Shown piece after piece: positions 4,729 through 50,093 of a stretch of 64,000 nt of DNA. The notes beneath the pieces were generated by a model. That model saw nothing but the letters and a program-made list of their open reading frames with translations, searched no databases and was not told the origin of the DNA. Source of the DNA: Candidatus Curtissbacteria bacterium RIFCSPLOWO2_02_41_11. Its GTDB lineage: Bacteria > Patescibacteriota > Microgenomatia > Curtissbacterales > GWA2-41-24. Every line of letters begins with the position of its first letter. The first letter of the stretch is position 1. The position numbers were made by a program, and so were the translations under genes. The stretch lies in NCBI GenBank assembly GCA_001775055.1, contig MFBU01000014.1, positions 120,535 to 184,534 on the forward strand. The letters run 5' to 3'.

Positions 4729-5087
4729 CGGGAAGAAGAACGATCGCCCCGCCAAAAATTTAATATTTAGGCGGGGAGGAAAGTCCAGACAGCACCAAGC
4801 AGGGGACGGAGCGTAAGCTCCGACTAATGATAGCTGGTGTCTAAACTCTTTATCCGCGTGTGGAGTTTAGAACAAGTCTTGAATTAACAAGACTTGAGAG
4901 TCACAGAGACGAGCGGGAGTGAAACGTTGACAATCCTACCTGCTGCAACCCAGAATAGAACCGTTTGACCATGCTTCGGGGAGGTTCTAAGTAGGGGCAG
5001 CCGCCTAAAAGGCGAGCCGAAGTGATTAAAACGTCATTTCGAGATAGATGATCGTTAGAACAGAATCTGGCTTACTCTCTTCCCGAA
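4729..5087 (+). ncRNA. rnpB: RNase P RNA (bacterial type)
   Basis: Conserved GGCGGGGAGGAAAGTCCAGACAGCACC (the P4 5' strand and GGAAAGUCCGGGC motif). The 3' ACAGAATCTGGCTTA motif (ACAGAAcCCGGCUUA consensus) is present. The P1 helix pairs gggaagaagaa at 4729-4739 with tctcttccc at 5079-5087. Lies in a 450-nt non-coding gap. Confidence 0.8.
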
Positions 5088-22484: not shown

Positions 22485-24026
22485 ATGGTTGCAGTCATTA
22501 ACTTCGGTGGGCAGTACGCTCATCTTATTGCCAGAAGAATTAGGGAACTTGGCGTAAAAAGTGAACTGATTAGTCCCGATAGTAATATTTCTACTGTAAA
22601 AAAATTAGCCCCTCAAGCTCTAATTTTATCTGGGAGTCCTTTCTCCTGCTATGAAAAAAATGCCCCAAAGGTAGATCTTAAAATCTATGAGCTTGGTCTG
22701 CCGATACTTGGTATTTGCTATGGTCAGCAATTGATGGCCGTACAACTTGGTGGTCAAGTTTCGTCCCATTCCTCAAAACAATTTGGCAGGGAACTTCTGA
22801 AAATTACAACGTCGGCCCTATTTGAGAATCTTAAAAGTTCGCAAACGGTTTGGTTCTCTCATGGCGATCAAGTCGACAGACTTCCCACAGGTTTTAAAAT
22901 AATTGCTTCAAGTAAAAATGCCAAGATTGCCGGCATGGAAGATTCACAAAGGCGATTTTATGGAATCCAATTTCATCCTGAGGTAACCCATACACCGAAT
23001 GGTGAGGTAATCCTATCGAACTTTCTTTTTAAAATTGCCAAGGCCAAAAAAGATTGGAATCTAAAATCTCTCAAGGAAGACATAGTTAATAACTTAATAA
23101 AGAAAATTAAAAATCAAAAAGTAGTGATGGCTCTGTCCGGCGGAGTTGATTCATTGGTTGCCGCTACCTTGTTGAAGGAAGCAATCGGCGATAATTTGTT
23201 TTTAGTTTTTATCGATACTGGGCTACTTCGCAAATATGATCTTGAAGATCTGGAAAATGTTGTTAAAAGTGTCAATTTCAAAAACCTGCCTGCCGGCAGG
23301 CAGGGATTCAGAATAGTTAACTCGCAAAGTCGTTTTCTTAAAATTCTCCAACGCGTCAATGATCCTGAAGAAAAACGAAAAGTTATTGCCAAACTTTATT
23401 TTGCGATCCTAGAGGAAGAGGCCAAAAAAATCGGCAATGTGACTTTTTTGGCCCAAGGCACAATTTATCCAGATCGAATCGAATCAGCAAAGCCTTCCAA
23501 ACATGCCGACAAAATCAAAAGCCATCACAATGTTACCTTGCCGAAAGGTCTTAAATTAAAAATAATTGAGCCTTTGGGGGAATTTTACAAAGACGAGGTC
23601 AGAAAATTGGGTAAAATCTTAAGAATTCCACAAGAATTCTTAAACCGCCATCCGTTTCCAGGACCTGGCCTAGCGATTAGGATTTTAGGAGAAGTGACTG
23701 AAGATCGACTCAAGATTCTAAGGGAGGCTGATGCTATCTTTATTGAGGAGTTAAAGAAAGCAGGTATATATAATAAGGTAGGACAAGCATTGGCTGCGCT
23801 TTTACCTGTTAAATCGGTTGGCGTAATGGGTGACGCACGTACTTATTCATATATCATCGCTTTAAGATCGGTAGATACTGTCGATTTTATGACCGCCGAC
23901 TGGTCAAAAATTCCAAGCGATGTCATGGAGAAAGTCTCATCACGAATTGTCAATGAAGTACGAGGAGTCAACCGTGTCGTCTACGATATCACTCAAAAAC
24001 CTCCGGCCACCATTGAATATGAGTAA
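22485..24026 (+). CDS. guaA: GMP synthase (glutamine-hydrolysing)
   Basis: GATase domain with ICYGQQ (catalytic Cys). PP-loop ALSGGVDS. C-terminal GMP synthase dimerisation domain. Contains a 27-nt GC-rich palindromic insert encoding NLPAGRQG. Confidence 0.9.
   Translation: MVAVINFGGQYAHLIARRIRELGVKSELISPDSNISTVKKLAPQALILSGSPFSCYEKNAPKVDLKIYELGLPILGICYGQQLMAVQLGGQVSSHSSKQFGRELLKITTSALFENLKSSQTVWFSHGDQVDRLPTGFKIIASSKNAKIAGMEDSQRRFYGIQFHPEVTHTPNGEVILSNFLFKIAKAKKDWNLKSLKEDIVNNLIKKIKNQKVVMALSGGVDSLVAATLLKEAIGDNLFLVFIDTGLLRKYDLEDLENVVKSVNFKNLPAGRQGFRIVNSQSRFLKILQRVNDPEEKRKVIAKLYFAILEEEAKKIGNVTFLAQGTIYPDRIESAKPSKHADKIKSHHNVTLPKGLKLKIIEPLGEFYKDEVRKLGKILRIPQEFLNRHPFPGPGLAIRILGEVTEDRLKILREADAIFIEELKKAGIYNKVGQALAALLPVKSVGVMGDARTYSYIIALRSVDTVDFMTADWSKIPSDVMEKVSSRIVNEVRGVNRVVYDITQKPPATIEYE
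23279..23305. repeat. 27-nt GC-rich element with perfect 20-bp palindrome CCTGCCTGCCGGCAGGCAGG, inserted in-frame in guaA (copy 1 of 2)
   Basis: caaaaacctgcctgccggcaggcaggg. An identical 27-mer is at 48863-48889. Confidence 0.9.
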
Positions 24027-27301: not shown

Positions 27302-28846
27302 ATGCTTGCCAAAGTCACTTCTGCCGCAGTTATCGGACTTGATGCAGTTCCCATTACTGTTGAGGTTGACATCGCAGCAATGGGTTTGCCCTCCTTTACT
27401 ATTGTTGGCCTTCCGGATAAAGCGGTTGAGGAATCAAAAGAAAGAGTCCGTGCTGCTCTTAAAAACTCCGGCGCCGATCTGCCGCCAAAGCGTATTACCG
27501 TCAATCTTGCTCCCGCAGATTTGCCCAAAGAAGGTCCAGCATATGACTTGCCGATCGCCTTGGGTATTTTAATGGCTTCAGAACAATTGACAGCTCGGGA
27601 TCTGTCCGATTCTATTTTCTTAGGAGAGCTTTCACTTGACGGATCAGTCCGCAGAATCTGGGGAGTTTTACCATGCGTACTTCTTGCCAGAGAGAAAAAA
27701 TTCATTAATTGTTTTATACCCAAAGAAAATATTGCTGAAGCGCAAGTTGTTGATAAAATTAATATTTTTCCGGTTGCAAACCTAAAACAACTCTTTAATC
27801 ATTATTCAACTTCTCACTTGCCGGAAATCAATCGAAAGCAAATCGTACCAGCAAAATTTCAAAAACAAAAATTTACAAATATACACGATAGCGAATATGA
27901 TTTTGAAAATATCCGGGGTCAGGAGTCTGCCAAAAGGGCCCTAGAGATTGCAGCTGCCGGCGGCCATAATGTTTTGATGAAAGGACCACCCGGTGCCGGT
28001 AAAACCTTAATGGCCAGATCCTTTGCCACCATTTTGCCAAAACTGACTTTCGAGGAAAGTCTGGAAGTAACCAAAATTTATTCGGTCGCAAACCTGCTGA
28101 ATCAGTCGAATCCAATAATATTATCAAGACCAATCCGTAGTCCCCATCATACGACCAGTAATATCGGTTTAATTGGTGGAGGAAATATTCCAAGGCCTGG
28201 CGAGATTTCCCTTGCCCATCGCGGGGTTCTTTTCTTGGATGAATTCCCAGAATTCCCCAGACACGTTCTTGAGGCTCTTCGCCAACCTATGGAAGATGGG
28301 CATGTAACTATTTCTCGAGCTGCGGGCTCTGTTAAATTTCCTTGTCGATTTACTTTAATTGCCGCTTCCAATCCTTGTCCCTGCGGATTTTTTGGCGATG
28401 AAACCAGAAATTGTACCTGTATGCCGCATATGATCACCCGCTATCAAAAAAGAATCTCCGGACCGATTTTAGACAGGATTGACATGCACATATCAGTCCC
28501 GGCTGTTAAAGTCGAAAAATTAACCGGCAAATTTCAGGCCGAGTCATCATCACAGATTCAAAAACGAGTTCAGAGAGCTCGCGACTTTCAGCTTAAAAGA
28601 TTCAAAGGTTTAAAAATTACCTCAAATTCCGAGATGAACAATAAACAATTAAAGCAATTCTGCAATCTCGATGATCAATCAATTCTCCTTTTAAAACAAG
28701 CAATCTCCAAACTCAATCTTTCTGCCAGAGCCTTTCACAGAGTAATTAAAATCGCCCGCACAATTGCAGACCTTGAAGGTTCCATCAAAATTCAATCCAA
28801 TCACGTCGCAGAGGCACTACAATACCGTCCTCAGGTCGATAGTTAG
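27302..28846 (+). CDS. comM: YifB/ComM-family Mg-chelatase-like AAA+ ATPase
   Basis: MLAKVTSAAVIGLDAVPITVEVDIA N-terminus. Walker A MKGPPGAGKT. Walker B LFLDEFPEF. C-terminal helix ARAFHRVIKIARTIADLEG. About 510 aa. Confidence 0.85.
   Translation: MLAKVTSAAVIGLDAVPITVEVDIAAMGLPSFTIVGLPDKAVEESKERVRAALKNSGADLPPKRITVNLAPADLPKEGPAYDLPIALGILMASEQLTARDLSDSIFLGELSLDGSVRRIWGVLPCVLLAREKKFINCFIPKENIAEAQVVDKINIFPVANLKQLFNHYSTSHLPEINRKQIVPAKFQKQKFTNIHDSEYDFENIRGQESAKRALEIAAAGGHNVLMKGPPGAGKTLMARSFATILPKLTFEESLEVTKIYSVANLLNQSNPIILSRPIRSPHHTTSNIGLIGGGNIPRPGEISLAHRGVLFLDEFPEFPRHVLEALRQPMEDGHVTISRAAGSVKFPCRFTLIAASNPCPCGFFGDETRNCTCMPHMITRYQKRISGPILDRIDMHISVPAVKVEKLTGKFQAESSSQIQKRVQRARDFQLKRFKGLKITSNSEMNNKQLKQFCNLDDQSILLLKQAISKLNLSARAFHRVIKIARTIADLEGSIKIQSNHVAEALQYRPQVDS
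28481..28846 (+). repeat. left copy of 366-bp direct repeat (comM 3' end). Core 28487-28771 is 100% identical to 32405-32689. The last 75 nt are diverged.
   Basis: Direct comparison of the two stretches in the sequence. Confidence 0.9.
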
Positions 28847-32177: not shown

Positions 32178-32398
32178 AAAAATAGTTTATACCTAAAATA
32201 CTTCAACTTGCATCTATTAAAAAGAATTTTAGGTACATAATCGGTTAACGAGAGTTGCAAACTCGAGTTAAACGAGTTTATATCACTTGTTATAACGGCA
32301 CAATACTACCGGGGTGTGGGACTTGCCTAGGCAAAGTAGAAATTTTCTCACCGAAAAACTAATGCGAAAAGAGAAGAAAAGCTCGCGATAAAGGGGTC

Positions 32399-32764
32399 GA
32401 CATACACATATCAGTCCCGGCTGTTAAAGTCGAAAAATTAACCGGCAAATTTCAGGCCGAGTCATCATCACAGATTCAAAAACGAGTTCAGAGAGCTCGC
32501 GACTTTCAGCTTAAAAGATTCAAAGGTTTAAAAATTACCTCAAATTCCGAGATGAACAATAAACAATTAAAGCAATTCTGCAATCTCGATGATCAATCAA
32601 TTCTCCTTTTAAAACAAGCAATCTCCAAACTCAATCTTTCTGCCAGAGCCTTTCACAGAGTAATTAAAATCGCCCGCACAATTGCAGACTTAGAAGGATC
32701 AGAAAAGATTAAATCAAACCACGTCGCAGAAGCCCTGCAGTATAGACCACAAGTGGATAGTTAG
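32399..32764 (+). pseudogene. comM: duplicated 3' fragment of comM (right copy of direct repeat). Encodes only the last about 120 codons, with no start context.
   Basis: Identical to comM codons about 395-490, then a diverged tail (LEGSEKIKSNHVAEALQYRPQVDS versus LEGSIKIQSNHVAEALQYRPQVDS). The tracked ORF 32552..32764 lies within it. Confidence 0.7.
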
Positions 32765-45860: not shown

Positions 45861-47111
45861 ATGTCACGCGTGGTAGTCAGATATGCTCCGTCTCCAACGG
45901 GCATCCCCCATATCGGTAATATCAGAACCGCCCTTTTTAACTTCTTATTGGCCAAAAATCAAAATGGGCAATTTATCCTGCGGATTGAAGACACCGACCG
46001 CAAAAGATTTATTCCCAAGTCTATTCCCAAAATCAAAGAAAGCCTTCTAGTTTTGGGTTTGAAATGGGATGGAGAGGAAATTTATCAATCAAAAAGGCTT
46101 AATTTATACCAAGAACATCTCGAAATCCTCAAGAAAAAACAACTCACTTATAATAAAGAAGGTGCTTGGTACTTTAAAGTTGAAAAGAGCAAGAAGATCA
46201 GTTGGCAAGATTTACTTCACGGACCAATCAACTTTTCTTCGGATGTAATTGAGGATTTTGTAATTGTTAAATCCGATGGCTTTCCGACTTATCATTTTGC
46301 ATCGGTAGTTGATGATCATGAAATGCAAGTATCCCATGTGATGCGTGGTGACGAATGGATTTCTTCAACCCCCAAGCATTTACTCCTCTATCAAGCCTTT
46401 TCTTGGAATCCGCCTAAATTTATCCACTTGCCGCCGATTTTAGGCCCTGACAAGAAAAAGCTTTCCAAAAGGCAAGGCGCCCGATCAGTCCTCGAATACA
46501 TCGAAGATGGATATCTGCCGGAAGCTCTTGTTAATTTTCTGGCTCTTTTAGGTTGGTCACCCAAAGGAGACAGAGAGCTTTTTATACTTGATGAGCTCAT
46601 CCGCGAATTTTCCCTCGACCGGCTCAACAAAAACAGTCCGATTTTTAATATTGAGAAACTCAACTGGTTTAACAAAAAATACTTGCAAAAATACACGAGT
46701 GATGAACTTATTAAAAAAATCAGAAATTTTTCAAAATTGGCCAAAACTGTTAATGATCAACATTTGGTCAAAATCAGCCGTTTGGTCTGTGATCGCTTAA
46801 CGACTTTGGCTGATTTTGATTCGATTGCTTCAATTTTTTTCGAAAAAGGCAAAGAAAAACCACCACAGAAATCAAAAATCGAAAATGCCAGAAAAGCCAT
46901 AGAGTCAATCATTACCTGGGACGAGTATTCAATCGGTCAGGTACTGGACGAATGGATCGCAAGTAATCATTTTGAAAGCTCGGATTTTAAAAATACTCTC
47001 CGTCTTTCTGTCTTTGCTGATAATACTCCGCCAATCTACCAAAGCCTAGCAGTTTTATCCAAAGAAGAAGTGATAAATCGAATCGATGATGCCATCAAAA
47101 AAGCAAAATAG
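45861..47111 (+). CDS. gltX: glutamyl-tRNA synthetase (short form, 416 aa)
   Basis: VRYAPSPTGIPHIGNIRTA (HIGH region). RIEDTDRKR. KLSKRQG (KMSKS-type). Confidence 0.85.
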   Translation: MSRVVVRYAPSPTGIPHIGNIRTALFNFLLAKNQNGQFILRIEDTDRKRFIPKSIPKIKESLLVLGLKWDGEEIYQSKRLNLYQEHLEILKKKQLTYNKEGAWYFKVEKSKKISWQDLLHGPINFSSDVIEDFVIVKSDGFPTYHFASVVDDHEMQVSHVMRGDEWISSTPKHLLLYQAFSWNPPKFIHLPPILGPDKKKLSKRQGARSVLEYIEDGYLPEALVNFLALLGWSPKGDRELFILDELIREFSLDRLNKNSPIFNIEKLNWFNKKYLQKYTSDELIKKIRNFSKLAKTVNDQHLVKISRLVCDRLTTLADFDSIASIFFEKGKEKPPQKSKIENARKAIESIITWDEYSIGQVLDEWIASNHFESSDFKNTLRLSVFADNTPPIYQSLAVLSKEEVINRIDDAIKKAK

Positions 47112-47778
47112 GGTAGTCGTTGCTATCTTTGCTCACCCGGATGATGAGGCCTTTGGTCCATCGGGTACCATTGCCAAACTTGCAAAAAACCACAATGTTT
47201 ATGTTCTTTGTGCAACGCGCGGCGAAGCGGGTTTACCAGCCGAAGCTCAAGCGAAGGCGGACGGCAATCTTAAAAATATCGGCAAGGTGCGAGAAAAAGA
47301 ACTGCGTTGTTCTGCCCAAATTTTAGGAGTTAAAAAAGTTTATTTTTTGGGTTTTGTTGACGGTACTCTTTCCAATGCCTTGTATCATCTCCTGGCTGCA
47401 AGAATCAAGCAAAAGCTCAAGCTTTTAAAACCCCAAACCATCATAACTTTTGAACCCCGGGGAATTTCCGGCCACATTGATCATATCACCGTATCTCTAG
47501 CAACCACCTATGTTTTTTACCACCTTCCCTTTGTCAAAAAATTACTCTACTTCTGCATATCGGAGGAAGAAAGAAAATCGGTTAAAGACTACTTTATCTA
47601 CTTTCCCCCGGGTTACCCAAAAAGCCAAATTGACCAAGTAGTCGATGTTGCCGATGTTTGGGAGACAAAAATTCAAGCAATGATGTGCCACAAATCGCAA
47701 ATTACCGATGCCAGAAGAGTTCTTAAAATACGCCAAAAATTCCCCAAAGTTGAACATTTTTTAGAACTTGCCAAGTGA
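47086..47778 (+). CDS. PIG-L/LmbE-family N-acetylglucosaminyl deacetylase
   Basis: VVAIFAHPDDEAFGPSGTIAKL is the LmbE family signature (AHPDDE). ITFEPRGISGHIDH (His-rich metal site). Confidence 0.7.
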   Translation: MMPSKKQNRVVVAIFAHPDDEAFGPSGTIAKLAKNHNVYVLCATRGEAGLPAEAQAKADGNLKNIGKVREKELRCSAQILGVKKVYFLGFVDGTLSNALYHLLAARIKQKLKLLKPQTIITFEPRGISGHIDHITVSLATTYVFYHLPFVKKLLYFCISEEERKSVKDYFIYFPPGYPKSQIDQVVDVADVWETKIQAMMCHKSQITDARRVLKIRQKFPKVEHFLELAK

Positions 47779-48944
47779 AACTTTACAATTCCTACTCTGA
47801 AAAAAAAGAAACTCTTGACCTTTCACATCCAATCGGCCTTTATGTTTGTGGAATTACTCCTTATGACACAACACACTTAGGTCACGCTTTCACTTTTTTG
47901 GTCTATGATGTCTTGGTCAGATATTTAAGATTTTTGGGAAACAAAGTCACCTATGTCCAAAATGTTACAGACATTGATGATGACATTTTAATTAAGGCCA
48001 AATCCCTTGGTACAACTTGGCAAGCATTAATCCAAGCCGAGACGAAAAAACATTTCAAAAACATGGCTGGTCTTAACGCTCTAGCCCCGGACATTATCCC
48101 TTACGCCACAGGTCATATTAAAGAAATGATTAGTATTATCAAGGTTTTAATCGCCAGAGGTTTAGCCTATGAAAAAAATGGCTCTGTATATTTTAAAATT
48201 AGAAGCGACAAGAATTTTGGCAAACTTTCCAAACTCGGCTATCGGGCAATGCTTCAAATTGCCAATGACCGCGGCAATTTTCCACTTGATCCCAACAAGC
48301 GCGACCCTTTGGATTTTGTCCTTTGGCAAAAACACAAAGACGGTGAGCCCTCTTGGGATTCACCATGGGGCAGGGGCCGACCCGGTTGGCATGTTGAATG
48401 CTCGGCAATGGCTATGAAATATTTAGGTCCAACAATCACTATTCATGGTGGGGGAGAGGATTTAATTTTTCCTCATCATGAGGCCGAAATTGCTCAAAGT
48501 GAAAACTACACAAAGCAGAAATTCGTCAAAATTTGGATGCACACCGGCATGGTTTATTGTGACCAAAAGAAAATGAGCAAAAGCCTCGGCAACATGGTCT
48601 TTGTCTGCGATCTTTTAAAAATTTACTCTGCCAACACCTTAAGACTCTATCTTCTTTCTCACCACTGGCGCCAATCTTGGAATTATAATGAAAAAAAGCT
48701 AGAAGAATCGCAGAAGACAGCCAAAATTTTAGAAAAATCAGCCACCAAATCAAGTATGGATGATCGAGAAGTTCAAAAAAATCTACCGGTCTTTTTTACA
48801 GCTCTTGATGATGATTTAAATATTCCCCAAGCTATCGAGGTTTTGGTCAGTTTTGCCAAAAGCAAAAACCTGCCTGCCGGCAGGCAGGGGCAGGCAGGGG
48901 AGTTAATTACCAAATGCGGCCAAATTCTCGGGTTAAAATTTTAG
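47775..48944 (+). CDS. cysS: cysteinyl-tRNA synthetase (short form, 389 aa)
   Basis: YVCGITPYDTTHLGHAFT (HIGH). KMSKSLGN (KMSKS). Contains the same 27-nt GC-rich palindrome as guaA near the 3' end. Confidence 0.85.
   Translation: MKLYNSYSEKKETLDLSHPIGLYVCGITPYDTTHLGHAFTFLVYDVLVRYLRFLGNKVTYVQNVTDIDDDILIKAKSLGTTWQALIQAETKKHFKNMAGLNALAPDIIPYATGHIKEMISIIKVLIARGLAYEKNGSVYFKIRSDKNFGKLSKLGYRAMLQIANDRGNFPLDPNKRDPLDFVLWQKHKDGEPSWDSPWGRGRPGWHVECSAMAMKYLGPTITIHGGGEDLIFPHHEAEIAQSENYTKQKFVKIWMHTGMVYCDQKKMSKSLGNMVFVCDLLKIYSANTLRLYLLSHHWRQSWNYNEKKLEESQKTAKILEKSATKSSMDDREVQKNLPVFFTALDDDLNIPQAIEVLVSFAKSKNLPAGRQGQAGELITKCGQILGLKF
48863..48900. repeat. same 27-nt palindromic element plus an extra CAGGCAGGGG unit, inserted in-frame in cysS (copy 2 of 2)
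   Basis: caaaaacctgcctgccggcaggcaggggcaggcagggg. Encodes KNLPAGRQGQAGE. Confidence 0.9.
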
Positions 48945-48963: not shown

Positions 48964-49941
48964 ATGGCAAAAATATTAAGCCTAAAAACAAAAACAAACT
49001 TGGCAGTTACGCCGTTTCCGCCGTTTAATTTTGATACTACTGTTTTTAAACCTTCTCACTATCCAGATTCACTCAAGATATATCAAACAGGAAAGTACTG
49101 GTTCGCTATGAGATATAACAACAGGGTCTATGGAATCAAGATGAAAAACGAGGGGACTGTGGATAATCCAAAAATTATGATTACTATTTTTTCTGAATCT
49201 AAACTCGCAAAAACAGAAGTTGAAAGAGTAATTGACGAACTTAAATTTAGATTTGAATTTAGCCGCAATATTTCAGAGTTTTATAAAAAGTTCAAAAATG
49301 ACAAAATTCTCGTGCCATTTATTAAAAGATGTTATGGAATGCATGGGAGTTGTGCCCAAAGTTTATACGGACTTTTGATGATAGGGATTCTTCTACAAAA
49401 TACAGTAATTAGAAGAAGTGTTCAAATGACAAAAGACATGCTTTTAAAGTATGGAGTCAAAGTTAAGTTTGATAGTAAAGAAGTTTATGAATTTTGGGAA
49501 CCCAGAGACTTAAAAAATGTGCGGGAAGAAGATTTAAGAAAACTAAAAGTCGGGTATAGAGCAAAATTATTTATCAAACTTTCTAAAACGTTTGTTGAAG
49601 AAAAGATTGACGAATTTGAACTTAGACAATTATCTGTTGGGGATGCAAAGGAAAGACTCTTGAGACTGTATGGTGTTGGTCCGGAGACTGTTCGTATTTT
49701 ACTAGTAGAAGCTTTGCATCATTATGAAATTTTTGATCATGTTGCGCCTTGGCAACAAAAAATTCTATCAAGATTACTTTTTAATAAACAATTGGTTCCA
49801 ACCGAAAAAATAATCAAGTACGTTAAAACTCGTTGGGGAAAATGGTCAGCCCTTGCGATACTTTACATTTGGGAAGATATTTTCTGGCAAAGAAAAGAAG
49901 GGAAAAGGATCAATTGGCTCGAGAAAGAAATTAGATTATGA
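48964..49941 (+). CDS. HhH-GPD-superfamily DNA glycosylase-like protein (AlkA/Ogg-like)
   Basis: LRLYGVGPETVRILLVEALHHYEIFDHVAPW resembles the helix-hairpin-helix GVGxKTA motif with a downstream Asp, as in Ogg/AlkA. Confidence 0.4.
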   Translation: MAKILSLKTKTNLAVTPFPPFNFDTTVFKPSHYPDSLKIYQTGKYWFAMRYNNRVYGIKMKNEGTVDNPKIMITIFSESKLAKTEVERVIDELKFRFEFSRNISEFYKKFKNDKILVPFIKRCYGMHGSCAQSLYGLLMIGILLQNTVIRRSVQMTKDMLLKYGVKVKFDSKEVYEFWEPRDLKNVREEDLRKLKVGYRAKLFIKLSKTFVEEKIDEFELRQLSVGDAKERLLRLYGVGPETVRILLVEALHHYEIFDHVAPWQQKILSRLLFNKQLVPTEKIIKYVKTRWGKWSALAILYIWEDIFWQRKEGKRINWLEKEIRL

Positions 49942-49952
49942 ATCTTGTTGGA

Positions 49953-50093
49953 CTATTTTTCCCTGAGGTGTTTGAAAAACTCTACCTGCTTTAATCTCTT
50001 TTTGGCCTCTTCTTTGGTATGATATGGCCCGCCAAGATTGCGGCCCGTCTTTTCCGAAAGCACGAAGTAACCTTCTTTACGTTTGACTATCAT
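49953..50093 (-). CDS. 46-aa basic hypothetical protein (not in ORF track)
   Basis: Minus-strand MIVKRKEGYFVLSEKTGRNLGGPYHTKEEAKKRLKQVEFFKHLREK. Short and unsupported beyond the intact frame. Confidence 0.25.
   Translation of the reverse strand: MIVKRKEGYFVLSEKTGRNLGGPYHTKEEAKKRLKQVEFFKHLREK

Follow-up and report, generated by a model that had tools for sequence, protein, structure and literature searches.

In a 64-kb stretch of the genome of Candidatus Curtissbacteria bacterium RIFCSPLOWO2_02_41_11 (contig MFBU01000014.1, positions 120,535 to 184,534; this whole stretch is referred to as the window), the 3' part of the cysS gene contains a perfect 20-nt palindrome, CCTGCCTGCCGGCAGGCAGG, with the halves CCTGCCTGCC and GGCAGGCAGG, for which we use the name PAL. 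Comparison with orthologous sequences indicates that this element and another copy in guaA are insertions of a 20-bp palindrome that is spread across phyla. On balance, we favor the view that the cysS element is a solo copy of a selfish palindromic insertion, probably seeded by nuclease cassettes in which a small GIY-YIG nuclease gene is associated with tRNA genes. The features of the window on which the argument relies are the following.

47775-48944, plus strand: cysS, host gene, 389 amino acids (aa), Pfam domains tRNA-synt_1e and DALR_2, with the insert in the C-terminal DALR_2.
48863-48868, plus strand: native A-rich 5' flank CAAAAA (Lys/Asn codons), outside the insert, which completes the shared 27-mer.
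48869-48888, no strand assigned: PAL, cysS copy, inserted element, read as (N)LPAGRQ(G), residues 365-372.
CysS peptide stretch across the insert: NLPAGRQGQAGELITK.
48889-48900, plus strand: GGCAGGCAGGGG, native cysS sequence (end of a Gly codon, then Gln-Ala-Gly), which contains the second decamer and resembles the right arm of PAL.
22485-24026, plus strand: guaA (GMP synthase), host gene, Pfam domains GATase, NAD_synthase and GMP_synt_C.
23285-23304, no strand assigned: PAL, first copy, in guaA, read as (N)LPAGRQ(G).

Even when up to three mismatches were allowed, PAL matched the window only at these two places, both times exactly, and no copy appeared in 100 dinucleotide-preserving shuffles of the window. 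A preliminary description of this DNA had held that guaA and cysS contain the same element, and this was borne out, as both copies lie within a common 27-mer, CAAAAACCTGCCTGCCGGCAGGCAGGG (CAAAAA-PAL-G), and are translated in the same reading frame as K-N-L-P-A-G-R-Q-G. The window has a GC content of about 39% and PAL is its sole long GC-rich palindrome. At the cysS copy, a stable hairpin is predicted (-23 kcal/mol over 56 nt, z = -2.6). The CysS protein scored 413 bits against the NCBIfam model TIGR00435 (cysS), for which the cut-off is 340, and its sequence is that of CysS from Candidatus Curtissbacteria bacterium GW2011_GWC2_38_9 (100% identity).

Comparison of the CysS C-terminus with orthologues showed that PAL is absent from P0006-P0011 and that orthologues with 95, 86, or 75-78% identity are 383 aa long, compared to 389 aa for CysS of the window, which agrees with the earlier proposal of a foreign insert tolerated in frame. 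In the protein alignment, orthologues have AKSNK--RRAGELITKC where the window has AKSKNLPAGRQGQAGELITKC. At the DNA level, cysS of the window reads GCAAAAA, PAL, and GGCAGGCAGGGG, whereas the closest insert-free allele (L121) reads GCAATAA, AA, and GGCGAGCAGGGG; the 20 nt of PAL therefore stand in place of 2 nt (AA), with a net gain of 18 nt and an intact open reading frame (ORF). In the distant, insert-bearing allele L124, the flanks are TCTAAAAA on the 5' side and TCCAAGCAGGGG on the 3' side. Similarly, GuaA typically has 506 aa but 513 in the window, and orthologues with FKNFKIV or FKNLKIV correspond to FKN[LPAGRQG]FRIV, which amounts to a net gain of 21 nt (7 aa), again with an intact ORF. 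For guaA, the change is most simply stated as one T exchanged for PAL plus GA. Neither at cysS nor at guaA was a target-site duplication found.

The preliminary description had also noted that a decamer, CAGGCAGGGG, occurs twice in tandem at cysS, and both copies are indeed present (48881-48890 and 48891-48900). Its figure of 45 nt between the element and the stop codon was close, the measured distance to the cysS TAG stop (48942-48944) being 53 nt from the end of PAL and 41 nt from the second decamer. Its proposal that the element grows by short direct repeats did not stand. At the position of the second decamer, the insert-free L121 has CGAGCAGGGG and the insert-bearing L124 has CAAGCAGGGG; the codons there are CGA/CAA/CAG-GCA-GGG, i.e., R/Q-A-G, and the A-G-E motif is kept in dozens of CysS orthologues. 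Because it is present in an insert-free orthologue and belongs to a conserved AGE motif, the second decamer is native, and the apparent extension consists of native codons that resemble the PAL arm by chance. Also, the stretch of PAL and the decamers has the same sequence in four independent assemblies of the strain cluster (window, L250, L251, L252), and the lack of length polymorphism together with the conserved tail refutes growth by direct repeats.

The second part of that proposal, a terminator-like hairpin at the 3' end of cysS, fared no better. The hairpin on the sense strand is followed by GGCAGGCAGGGGAG, which has no U-run, it lies within a translated ORF, and the next gene starts 20 nt past the cysS stop. 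A scan for consensus terminators gave sites on the antisense strand only, where the hairpin is followed by TTTTTG derived from the native A-run. Among 166 PAL copies, a T-rich tail follows PAL in 11%, compared to 12% at random positions of the same loci. As T-runs are no commoner than at random and the hairpin is situated inside an ORF, PAL as an intrinsic (Rho-independent) terminator was rejected; the members of the PAL family are not terminators. A model in which tandem duplication of the decamer expands the element and a terminator-like hairpin forms at the end of cysS can point to the two tandem decamers and to the lowest-energy fold of the cysS site, in which the second decamer is usable as an alternative arm, but given the native codons in insert-free orthologues, four assemblies without length variation, and a translated site lacking a U-tract on the sense strand, we consider it very improbable.

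Template switching (fold-back synthesis) could instead have generated PAL in place, separately at each locus, from resident sequence similar to GGCAGGCAGG. In favor of this origin, 10 of 12 positions agree between the PAL arm plus GG and the native sequence to the right of the cysS insertion site (GGCGAGCAGGGG in L121). However, no such similarity exists at the guaA and tRNA sites, more than 160 unrelated loci share the exact 20-mer, and the viral collection described below contains none of three composition-matched palindromes, so that template switching at each locus is barely credible.

The AlphaFold2 model of CysS, built from an 18-sequence alignment, is poor overall (mean predicted local distance difference test score, pLDDT, 49). 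Its C-terminal part (pLDDT 62-87), of which the helices (pLDDT 66-87) were taken with caution, has the insert in the turn that joins helices 350-362 and 370-384 of the DALR domain. According to this model, the insert occupies a turn-coding position.

Among 120 CysS homologues, the insert was carried only by the strain cluster of the window (P0001-5) and by the 71%-identical P0013, at the same site. The P0013 copy differs from PAL by one base and is surrounded by a gene that is 72% identical to cysS of the window at the DNA level, with many synonymous differences. The organism encoding P0013 has, in addition, a PAL-like insert, CCTGCCTGCTGGCAGGCAGG (read DLPAGRQ), at a different site of guaA. 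Judged from these alignments, PAL entered an ancestor of this Curtissbacteria strain cluster. The loci L122 and L123 are 99.6% identical to the window over 4.1 kb, but the 3' end of the L122 cysS is a diverged PAL-free allele whose encoded C-terminal residues are those of P0007, a homologue with 86% identity. Genes downstream of cysS in L122 are other than those in the window, and L250 combines PAL with downstream genes of the L122 type. The combinations found in L122 and L250 therefore show that the cysS region is a recombination mosaic. Precise excision as the source of the empty allele of L122 was considered and rejected, as this allele is a diverged, recombined 3' end.

Several features of CysS and its surroundings were recorded alongside. 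The gene for a PIG-L family deacetylase (47086-47778), whose best NCBIfam matches are BshB/MshB, all under the cut-off, overlaps cysS (47775-48944). CysS is short, its 389 aa covering positions 1-391 of the 466-position cysS profile, and it also scored 356 bits on the MshC model (cut-off 485); some of its homologues have been named MshC by JGI. A role of CysS as a thiol-cofactor ligase, beside or instead of tRNA charging, is conceivable. Directly after cysS, a 325-aa ORF (48964-49941; weak Ogg/HhH-GPD match) varies between strains. L121 and L124 lack it, the homologue of window positions ~49955-50090 coming directly after cysS there, and in L122 and L250 an RHH_1 gene and an 82-aa ORF stand in its place. 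The longest repeat of the window is a 300-nt direct repeat, 98% identical, at 28476-28775 and 32394-32693, 3.9 kb apart.

PAL is not confined to Curtissbacteria. In a one-genome-per-species collection, with phyla taken from record titles, the exact 20-mer was present in at least 120 genome stretches from about nine phylum-level groups. Among the matches listed, the Patescibacteria were represented by Parcubacteria, Saccharibacteria, WWE3, Daviesbacteria, Uhrbacteria, Doudnabacteria, Wolfebacteria, and Peregrinibacteria, and other matches belonged to Omnitrophota, Bacteroidota, Planctomycetes, Gammaproteobacteria, Bdellovibrionales, delta proteobacteria/Thermodesulfobacteriota, Thermodesulfovibrio, and Chloroflexi. 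Cultured isolates with PAL include Winogradskyella echinorum KCTC 22026, Flagellimonas yonaguniensis, Longitalea luteola, and Flavivirga sp. In a viral collection, PAL was found in 35 stretches, and three composition-matched control palindromes gave 0 matches each. Nothing specific speaks for an artefact of sequencing or assembly (adapter or chimeric hairpin), apart from the fact that many loci come from metagenome-assembled genomes. PAL occurs in cultured isolates, in complete long-read chromosomes, and in assemblies from many laboratories; copies are in frame in genes, show point variants at orthologous sites, and are identical across four strain assemblies. On account of the isolates, the varied technologies, and the in-frame, point-mutated orthologous copies, an artefact is excluded and its probability is negligible. 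Full-text searches for the sequence or the peptide, and searches by topic, found no description of the element in the literature, and Rfam had no family over PAL or the cassette leader, giving tRNAs only.

Flanks of PAL are unrelated from locus to locus, and most copies are intergenic. The base before solo copies is A in 41% and T in 9% of cases; on the outward side, A is rare and GA (p = 0.009) and CG are enriched. Inside credible genes, 11 of 11 copies are read as LPAGRQ, for which the chance with random frames is about 2e-5. Seven of these copies are from other genomes and lie in genes for FtsK, NAD-dependent dehydratase, ribosomal protein S6, a PMT-type transferase, and GatB and in two long ORFs without a name; the remaining four are from Curtissbacteria, where cysS has PAL in two lineages and two different sites of guaA are occupied. 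LPAGRQ is the only cysteine-free frame among the three open frames of PAL; of the ORFs in the other frames (PACRQAG, CLPAGR), three were scanned and had no Pfam match, and the rest are short and were outside the scan. The simplest reading of the frame bias is selection against the two cysteine-containing frames.

Some copies have unusual surroundings. Short tandem arrays of 7-8-nt units (e.g., AATTACG, TCTCGTC, TGAAAGG) are often cut by PAL in Bacteroidota, Planctomycetes, and viral contigs, so that PAL has a direct repeat on either side (L101 1815, L137 8396, L147 3391, L045 773, L152 897, L058 1870, L150 6644, and others). PAL nested in PAL was seen at L018 1070 and L042 467, where an exact outer copy is split between positions 11 and 12, in the hairpin loop, and L133 and L155 contain PAL nested in decayed outer copies. 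The 29.5-kb viral contig IMGVR_UViG_3300037242_000417 (L149, L156, L157) has at least six PAL copies in two larger repeated units, one of which ends ...CCCGTAG-PAL-GGGCGGCAC..., while the other is a longer hairpin, CCCATCCTCG...PAL...CGAGGGTGGG. Single clear cases of PAL at the tip of a larger locus-specific hairpin exist (L113, L025, L075), but there was no significant trend towards such a location (mean of 8.7 versus 7.9 enclosing pairs, p = 0.14).

In a subset of genome loci, PAL is part of a defined gene arrangement, namely a tRNA 5' fragment interrupted by PAL, a small ORF, and an intact tRNA; examples are L037 (a curated complete WWE3 genome), L106, and L160 (a viral contig). The small ORF codes for a stand-alone GIY-YIG domain of about 80 aa (79-87 aa; e.g., L037 2166-2402 and L160 556-816), for which Pfam PF01541 was matched in L037, L118, and L160 and the nearest solved structures are the UPF0213 structures 1ywl and 1zg2. 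GIY-YIG proteins of different cassettes are 45-55% identical to one another. When metagenomes were searched from the protein side, relatives were encoded in 513 of 600 candidate stretches, and the best 80 loci were used for counting, PAL being accepted with up to three substitutions and at most 120 nt upstream or 150 nt downstream of the ORF. PAL was found near the GIY-YIG ORF in 55 of these 80 loci, in 36 cases as an exact match. The other 98 kb of the same loci contained 4 PAL copies, so that the density of PAL in the spare tRNA copies, which are ~30-75 nt long, is about 300 times higher. An intact tRNA for Arg, Leu, Phe, Lys, Met, Asn, Thr, or Gly follows 0-20 nt past the ORF, and a partial or full spare copy of the same tRNA with PAL precedes it; the order is reversed in a minority. 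On the nuclease transcript of these cassettes, PAL falls into an untranslated region, either 5' or 3'.

About 40 comparisons between spare and intact tRNAs showed that PAL is an exact 20-nt insert, without duplication or loss. Inserts are located in the D-loop (about 39 events), the nt 8-9 linker (8), the edges of the anticodon loop (6), and the T-loop (7), and rarely in stems, and A precedes PAL in 38 of 41 tRNA-copy cases. Some spare copies have two or three hairpin inserts; decayed variants mostly have C-to-T changes, and a few unrelated GC hairpins occur. Identity to the functional tRNA is 99.5% distal to PAL but 95% between PAL and the ORF (Fisher p = 4e-8), which makes PAL the dividing line between sequence that is host-like and sequence that moves together with the ORF. 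The commonest donor context in the cassettes is PAL|GAGC. From the PAL side, an all-against-all BLAST of 1034 ORFs located within 700 nt of PAL gave no cluster in more than three loci, and in a Pfam scan of 83 PAL-neighboring ORFs, GIY-YIG was the sole recurrent relevant family, the rest being housekeeping genes. A scan of the viral collection with a GIY-YIG alignment returned 6 loci only. The PAL family is tightly and geometrically linked to GIY-YIG-tRNA cassettes.

Further loci belong to the wider picture of nuclease and tRNA genes. In L093, an ORF of the same GIY-YIG family (4758-5042, minus strand) is situated inside a 23S rRNA gene like an intervening sequence, and this genome also has a solo PAL, 3.8 kb from the GIY-YIG ORF. 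At L153 2239-2330 and L085 45-137, seemingly full-length tRNAs have PAL as an extra arm, in the variable region of a tRNA-Met (a 92-nt tRNA according to ARAGORN) and in the D-loop of a tRNA-Arg(TCT), respectively. At L160 818-980 (IMGVR_UViG_3300035537_000177), a second tRNA-Lys 5' part after the GIY-YIG ORF runs into GC-rich structured sequence that replaces the anticodon loop, and ARAGORN called no tRNA there; this structured sequence may be an intron or another insert.

By analogy with the SegB endonuclease of phage T4, the cassettes could be homing-type selfish genes. They might cleave the cassette-free allele and be copied by gene conversion, as suggested by their stereotyped insertion by tRNA genes of many isotypes and by the sharp identity boundary at PAL. 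PAL would then plug or mark the site of cleavage or the junction of the cassette, and solo PALs, as in cysS and guaA, would have arisen as side effects when the same machinery acted at other sites. A possible route would be the repair of an ectopic break in which synthesis is primed by the preceding A and the PAL end is copied as a short template, after which selection would retain solo PALs only where they are harmless. Solo flanks and tRNA inserts have a common junction bias, the preceding A (41% and 38 of 41, respectively). This A fits priming on the PAL end of a cassette, and so does the GA that guaA has after PAL, as the donor context seen most often is PAL|GAGC.

Several observations weigh against this explanation. 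The same cysS site is filled in two lineages whose genes are only 72% identical, with PAL changed at a single position, which requires site preference or maintenance of the sequence. A GIY-YIG profile search of the 64-kb window and of 41 kb from close relatives (L122, L124, L127) was negative, and only about 6 of the 166 PAL copies from DNA scans lie within 200 nt of a GIY-YIG gene; because so few copies have such a neighbor, mobilization in trans is something that we infer rather than show. GIY-YIG enzymes are hydrolases and are not known to transfer strands, and no tested step accounts for the copying of a constant 20-mer into a break. Also, exact direct repeats of at least 7 nt (7-14 nt) flank 15% of solo copies, compared to 2.5% in permuted and 5.3% in displaced same-locus controls, in many cases because PAL breaks up a tandem array of heptamers or octamers; such copies are at odds with the model because the exact, duplication-free tRNA inserts do not predict them.

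Most PAL copies have no GIY-YIG neighbor, and PAL might therefore be a self-standing mobile hairpin, moved by another activity such as a REP/RAYT-like HUH enzyme, or by replication or repair that inserts hairpins into single-stranded loops, with the nuclease as a bystander and the spare tRNA copies as merely neutral sites. Inserts in the loops of tRNA arms and in PAL's own loop (L018, L042) agree with such a hairpin. Insertion without target duplication is typical of IS200/IS605-type single-strand transposition, and the duplication-free insertion of PAL resembles it in this respect. On the other hand, a self-standing hairpin does not explain why PAL is about 300 times denser in spare tRNA copies (55 of 80 loci) than in the rest of the loci, why it coincides with the boundary between host-like and cassette-borne DNA, or why no other gene family is recurrent near PAL; PAL also lacks the GTAG-type head of REPs. 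We consider this explanation rather unlikely.

Selection on PAL as a cis-element offers a different account of its constancy. PAL would be bound by a conserved protein dimer, or would form an RNA hairpin to stabilize transcripts or block tRNA-like folding, and the cysS copy would serve the cysS mRNA. Indeed, the 20-mer is far more conserved than the flanking ORFs (GIY-YIG proteins 45-55% identical), cysS is 72% identical between the two lineages at the DNA level where PAL has 1 change in 20, the hairpin is stable, and cassette PALs are in the untranslated part of the nuclease transcript. However, the sites of PAL are unrelated, ranging from intergenic DNA and heptamer arrays to tRNA loops and the loop-coding portions of housekeeping genes; close relatives do without a copy in cysS, there is no terminator signature, and nothing observed hints at an effect on mRNA stability. 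A role as hairpin alone would permit compensatory changes, but the variants resemble one-sided decay, mostly C-to-T. A cis-element is thus quite improbable, and the insert in cysS is probably a tolerated passenger and not a regulatory device.

Returning to seeding by nuclease cassettes, a more far-reaching version is put forward tentatively, as a possibility about which we have more doubt than confidence. PAL would be a 20-bp mobile "nano-element" without coding capacity and without target duplication, whose constant sequence is inserted where DNA has been broken by a minimal GIY-YIG nuclease (~80 aa), a colonizer of tRNA (and rRNA) genes across bacterial phyla and their viruses, and the palindrome would be both an immunity plug at the nuclease target and a dispersed footprint that gives housekeeping proteins an LPAGRQ loop. 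If the link between PAL and the nuclease holds, PAL would be a very small mobile or templated insertion of 20 bp, fixed in sequence from Patescibacteria to Bacteroidota, Planctomycetes, and phages, and this constancy across phyla would therefore point to a shared, horizontally spreading machinery. It would have a concrete partner, the ~80-aa GIY-YIG nuclease, in an architecture of spare tRNA copy, PAL, ORF, and intact tRNA. The link would also explain why proteins of uncultured bacteria with low GC content contain a class of peculiar GC-rich LPAGRQ loops, and why some tRNAs of metagenome-assembled genomes are called as broken or as "long-arm" forms. For annotation, PAL can serve as a marker of recent insertion and of recombination mosaics.

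Among known systems, the Rickettsia palindromic elements (RPE), which Ogata et al. reportedly described in 2000 as elements of roughly 100-150 bp with divergent copies, found in Rickettsia only, are similar to PAL, as interpreted here, in being selfish palindromes located in frame in housekeeping genes (RPE also in RNA genes), translated, tolerated at the protein surface, and patchy among relatives. In-frame insertion into protein genes, as in RPE, is also indicated for PAL by the alignments of cysS (+18 nt) and guaA (+21 nt). In contrast, PAL has 20 bp, is identical across phyla and viruses, uses one reading frame, and has a recurrent nuclease-tRNA partner. Because its size and its host range (Curtissbacteria and many phyla) differ, PAL is not a member of the RPE.

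REP/REPIN sequences are extragenic, species-specific, imperfect palindromes with a GTAG-like head that occur in hundreds of copies per genome and are tied to the Y1 HUH enzyme RAYT; REPs are presumably mobilized in trans, by an enzyme encoded in a single copy. Like PAL, they are short GC-rich hairpin repeats (20-40 nt), dispersed and without target duplication. PAL differs from them in that it is intragenic here, crosses phyla, is a perfect palindrome, has 2 copies per 64 kb, and is tied to a GIY-YIG gene. Both copies in the window are in genes, while elsewhere most copies are intergenic, and neither a GTAG-like head nor an imperfect palindrome was found, the flanks being unconserved beyond the A at -1 (41%). 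A general scan of the 52 window ORFs, which was not aimed at RAYT or transposases, showed no transposase family among the 25 families listed (69 matched). Miniature inverted-repeat transposable elements have terminal inverted repeats flanked by a target-site duplication of fixed length; such a duplication was found neither at the tRNA copies nor at cysS and guaA, and direct repeats, of variable length, flank only about 15% of solo copies. GC-rich palindromes are also known from fungal mitochondria, where PstI palindromes flank tRNA genes in Neurospora, GC clusters occur in yeast, and double-hairpin elements occur in Allomyces. These are, like PAL, short conserved GC palindromes of AT-rich genomes, often by tRNA genes, sometimes in coding or rRNA sequences, and suspected to be mobile. 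Unlike PAL, they are organellar, have other sequences, are mostly intergenic, and have no defined nuclease partner.

The nearest parallel for the cassettes is SegB of phage T4, a GIY-YIG endonuclease encoded in a tRNA cluster. By cutting DNA in the region of the tRNA genes, SegB causes tRNA-containing segments to be preferentially inherited and duplicated, and the association with tRNA genes is widespread (PMC2330249, PMC13096335). In both cases, a GIY-YIG nuclease gene is embedded among tRNA genes, and an ORF with the GIY-YIG catalytic domain (PF01541) is present in L037, L118, and L160 and absent from the window. SegB is larger and includes a DNA-binding part, whereas the cassettes encode only a UPF0213-like catalytic domain of ~80 aa, and neither a palindromic plug nor dispersed solo footprints have been reported for SegB. 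We take PAL to be a kind of selfish palindromic insert that falls outside the definitions of RPE and REP.

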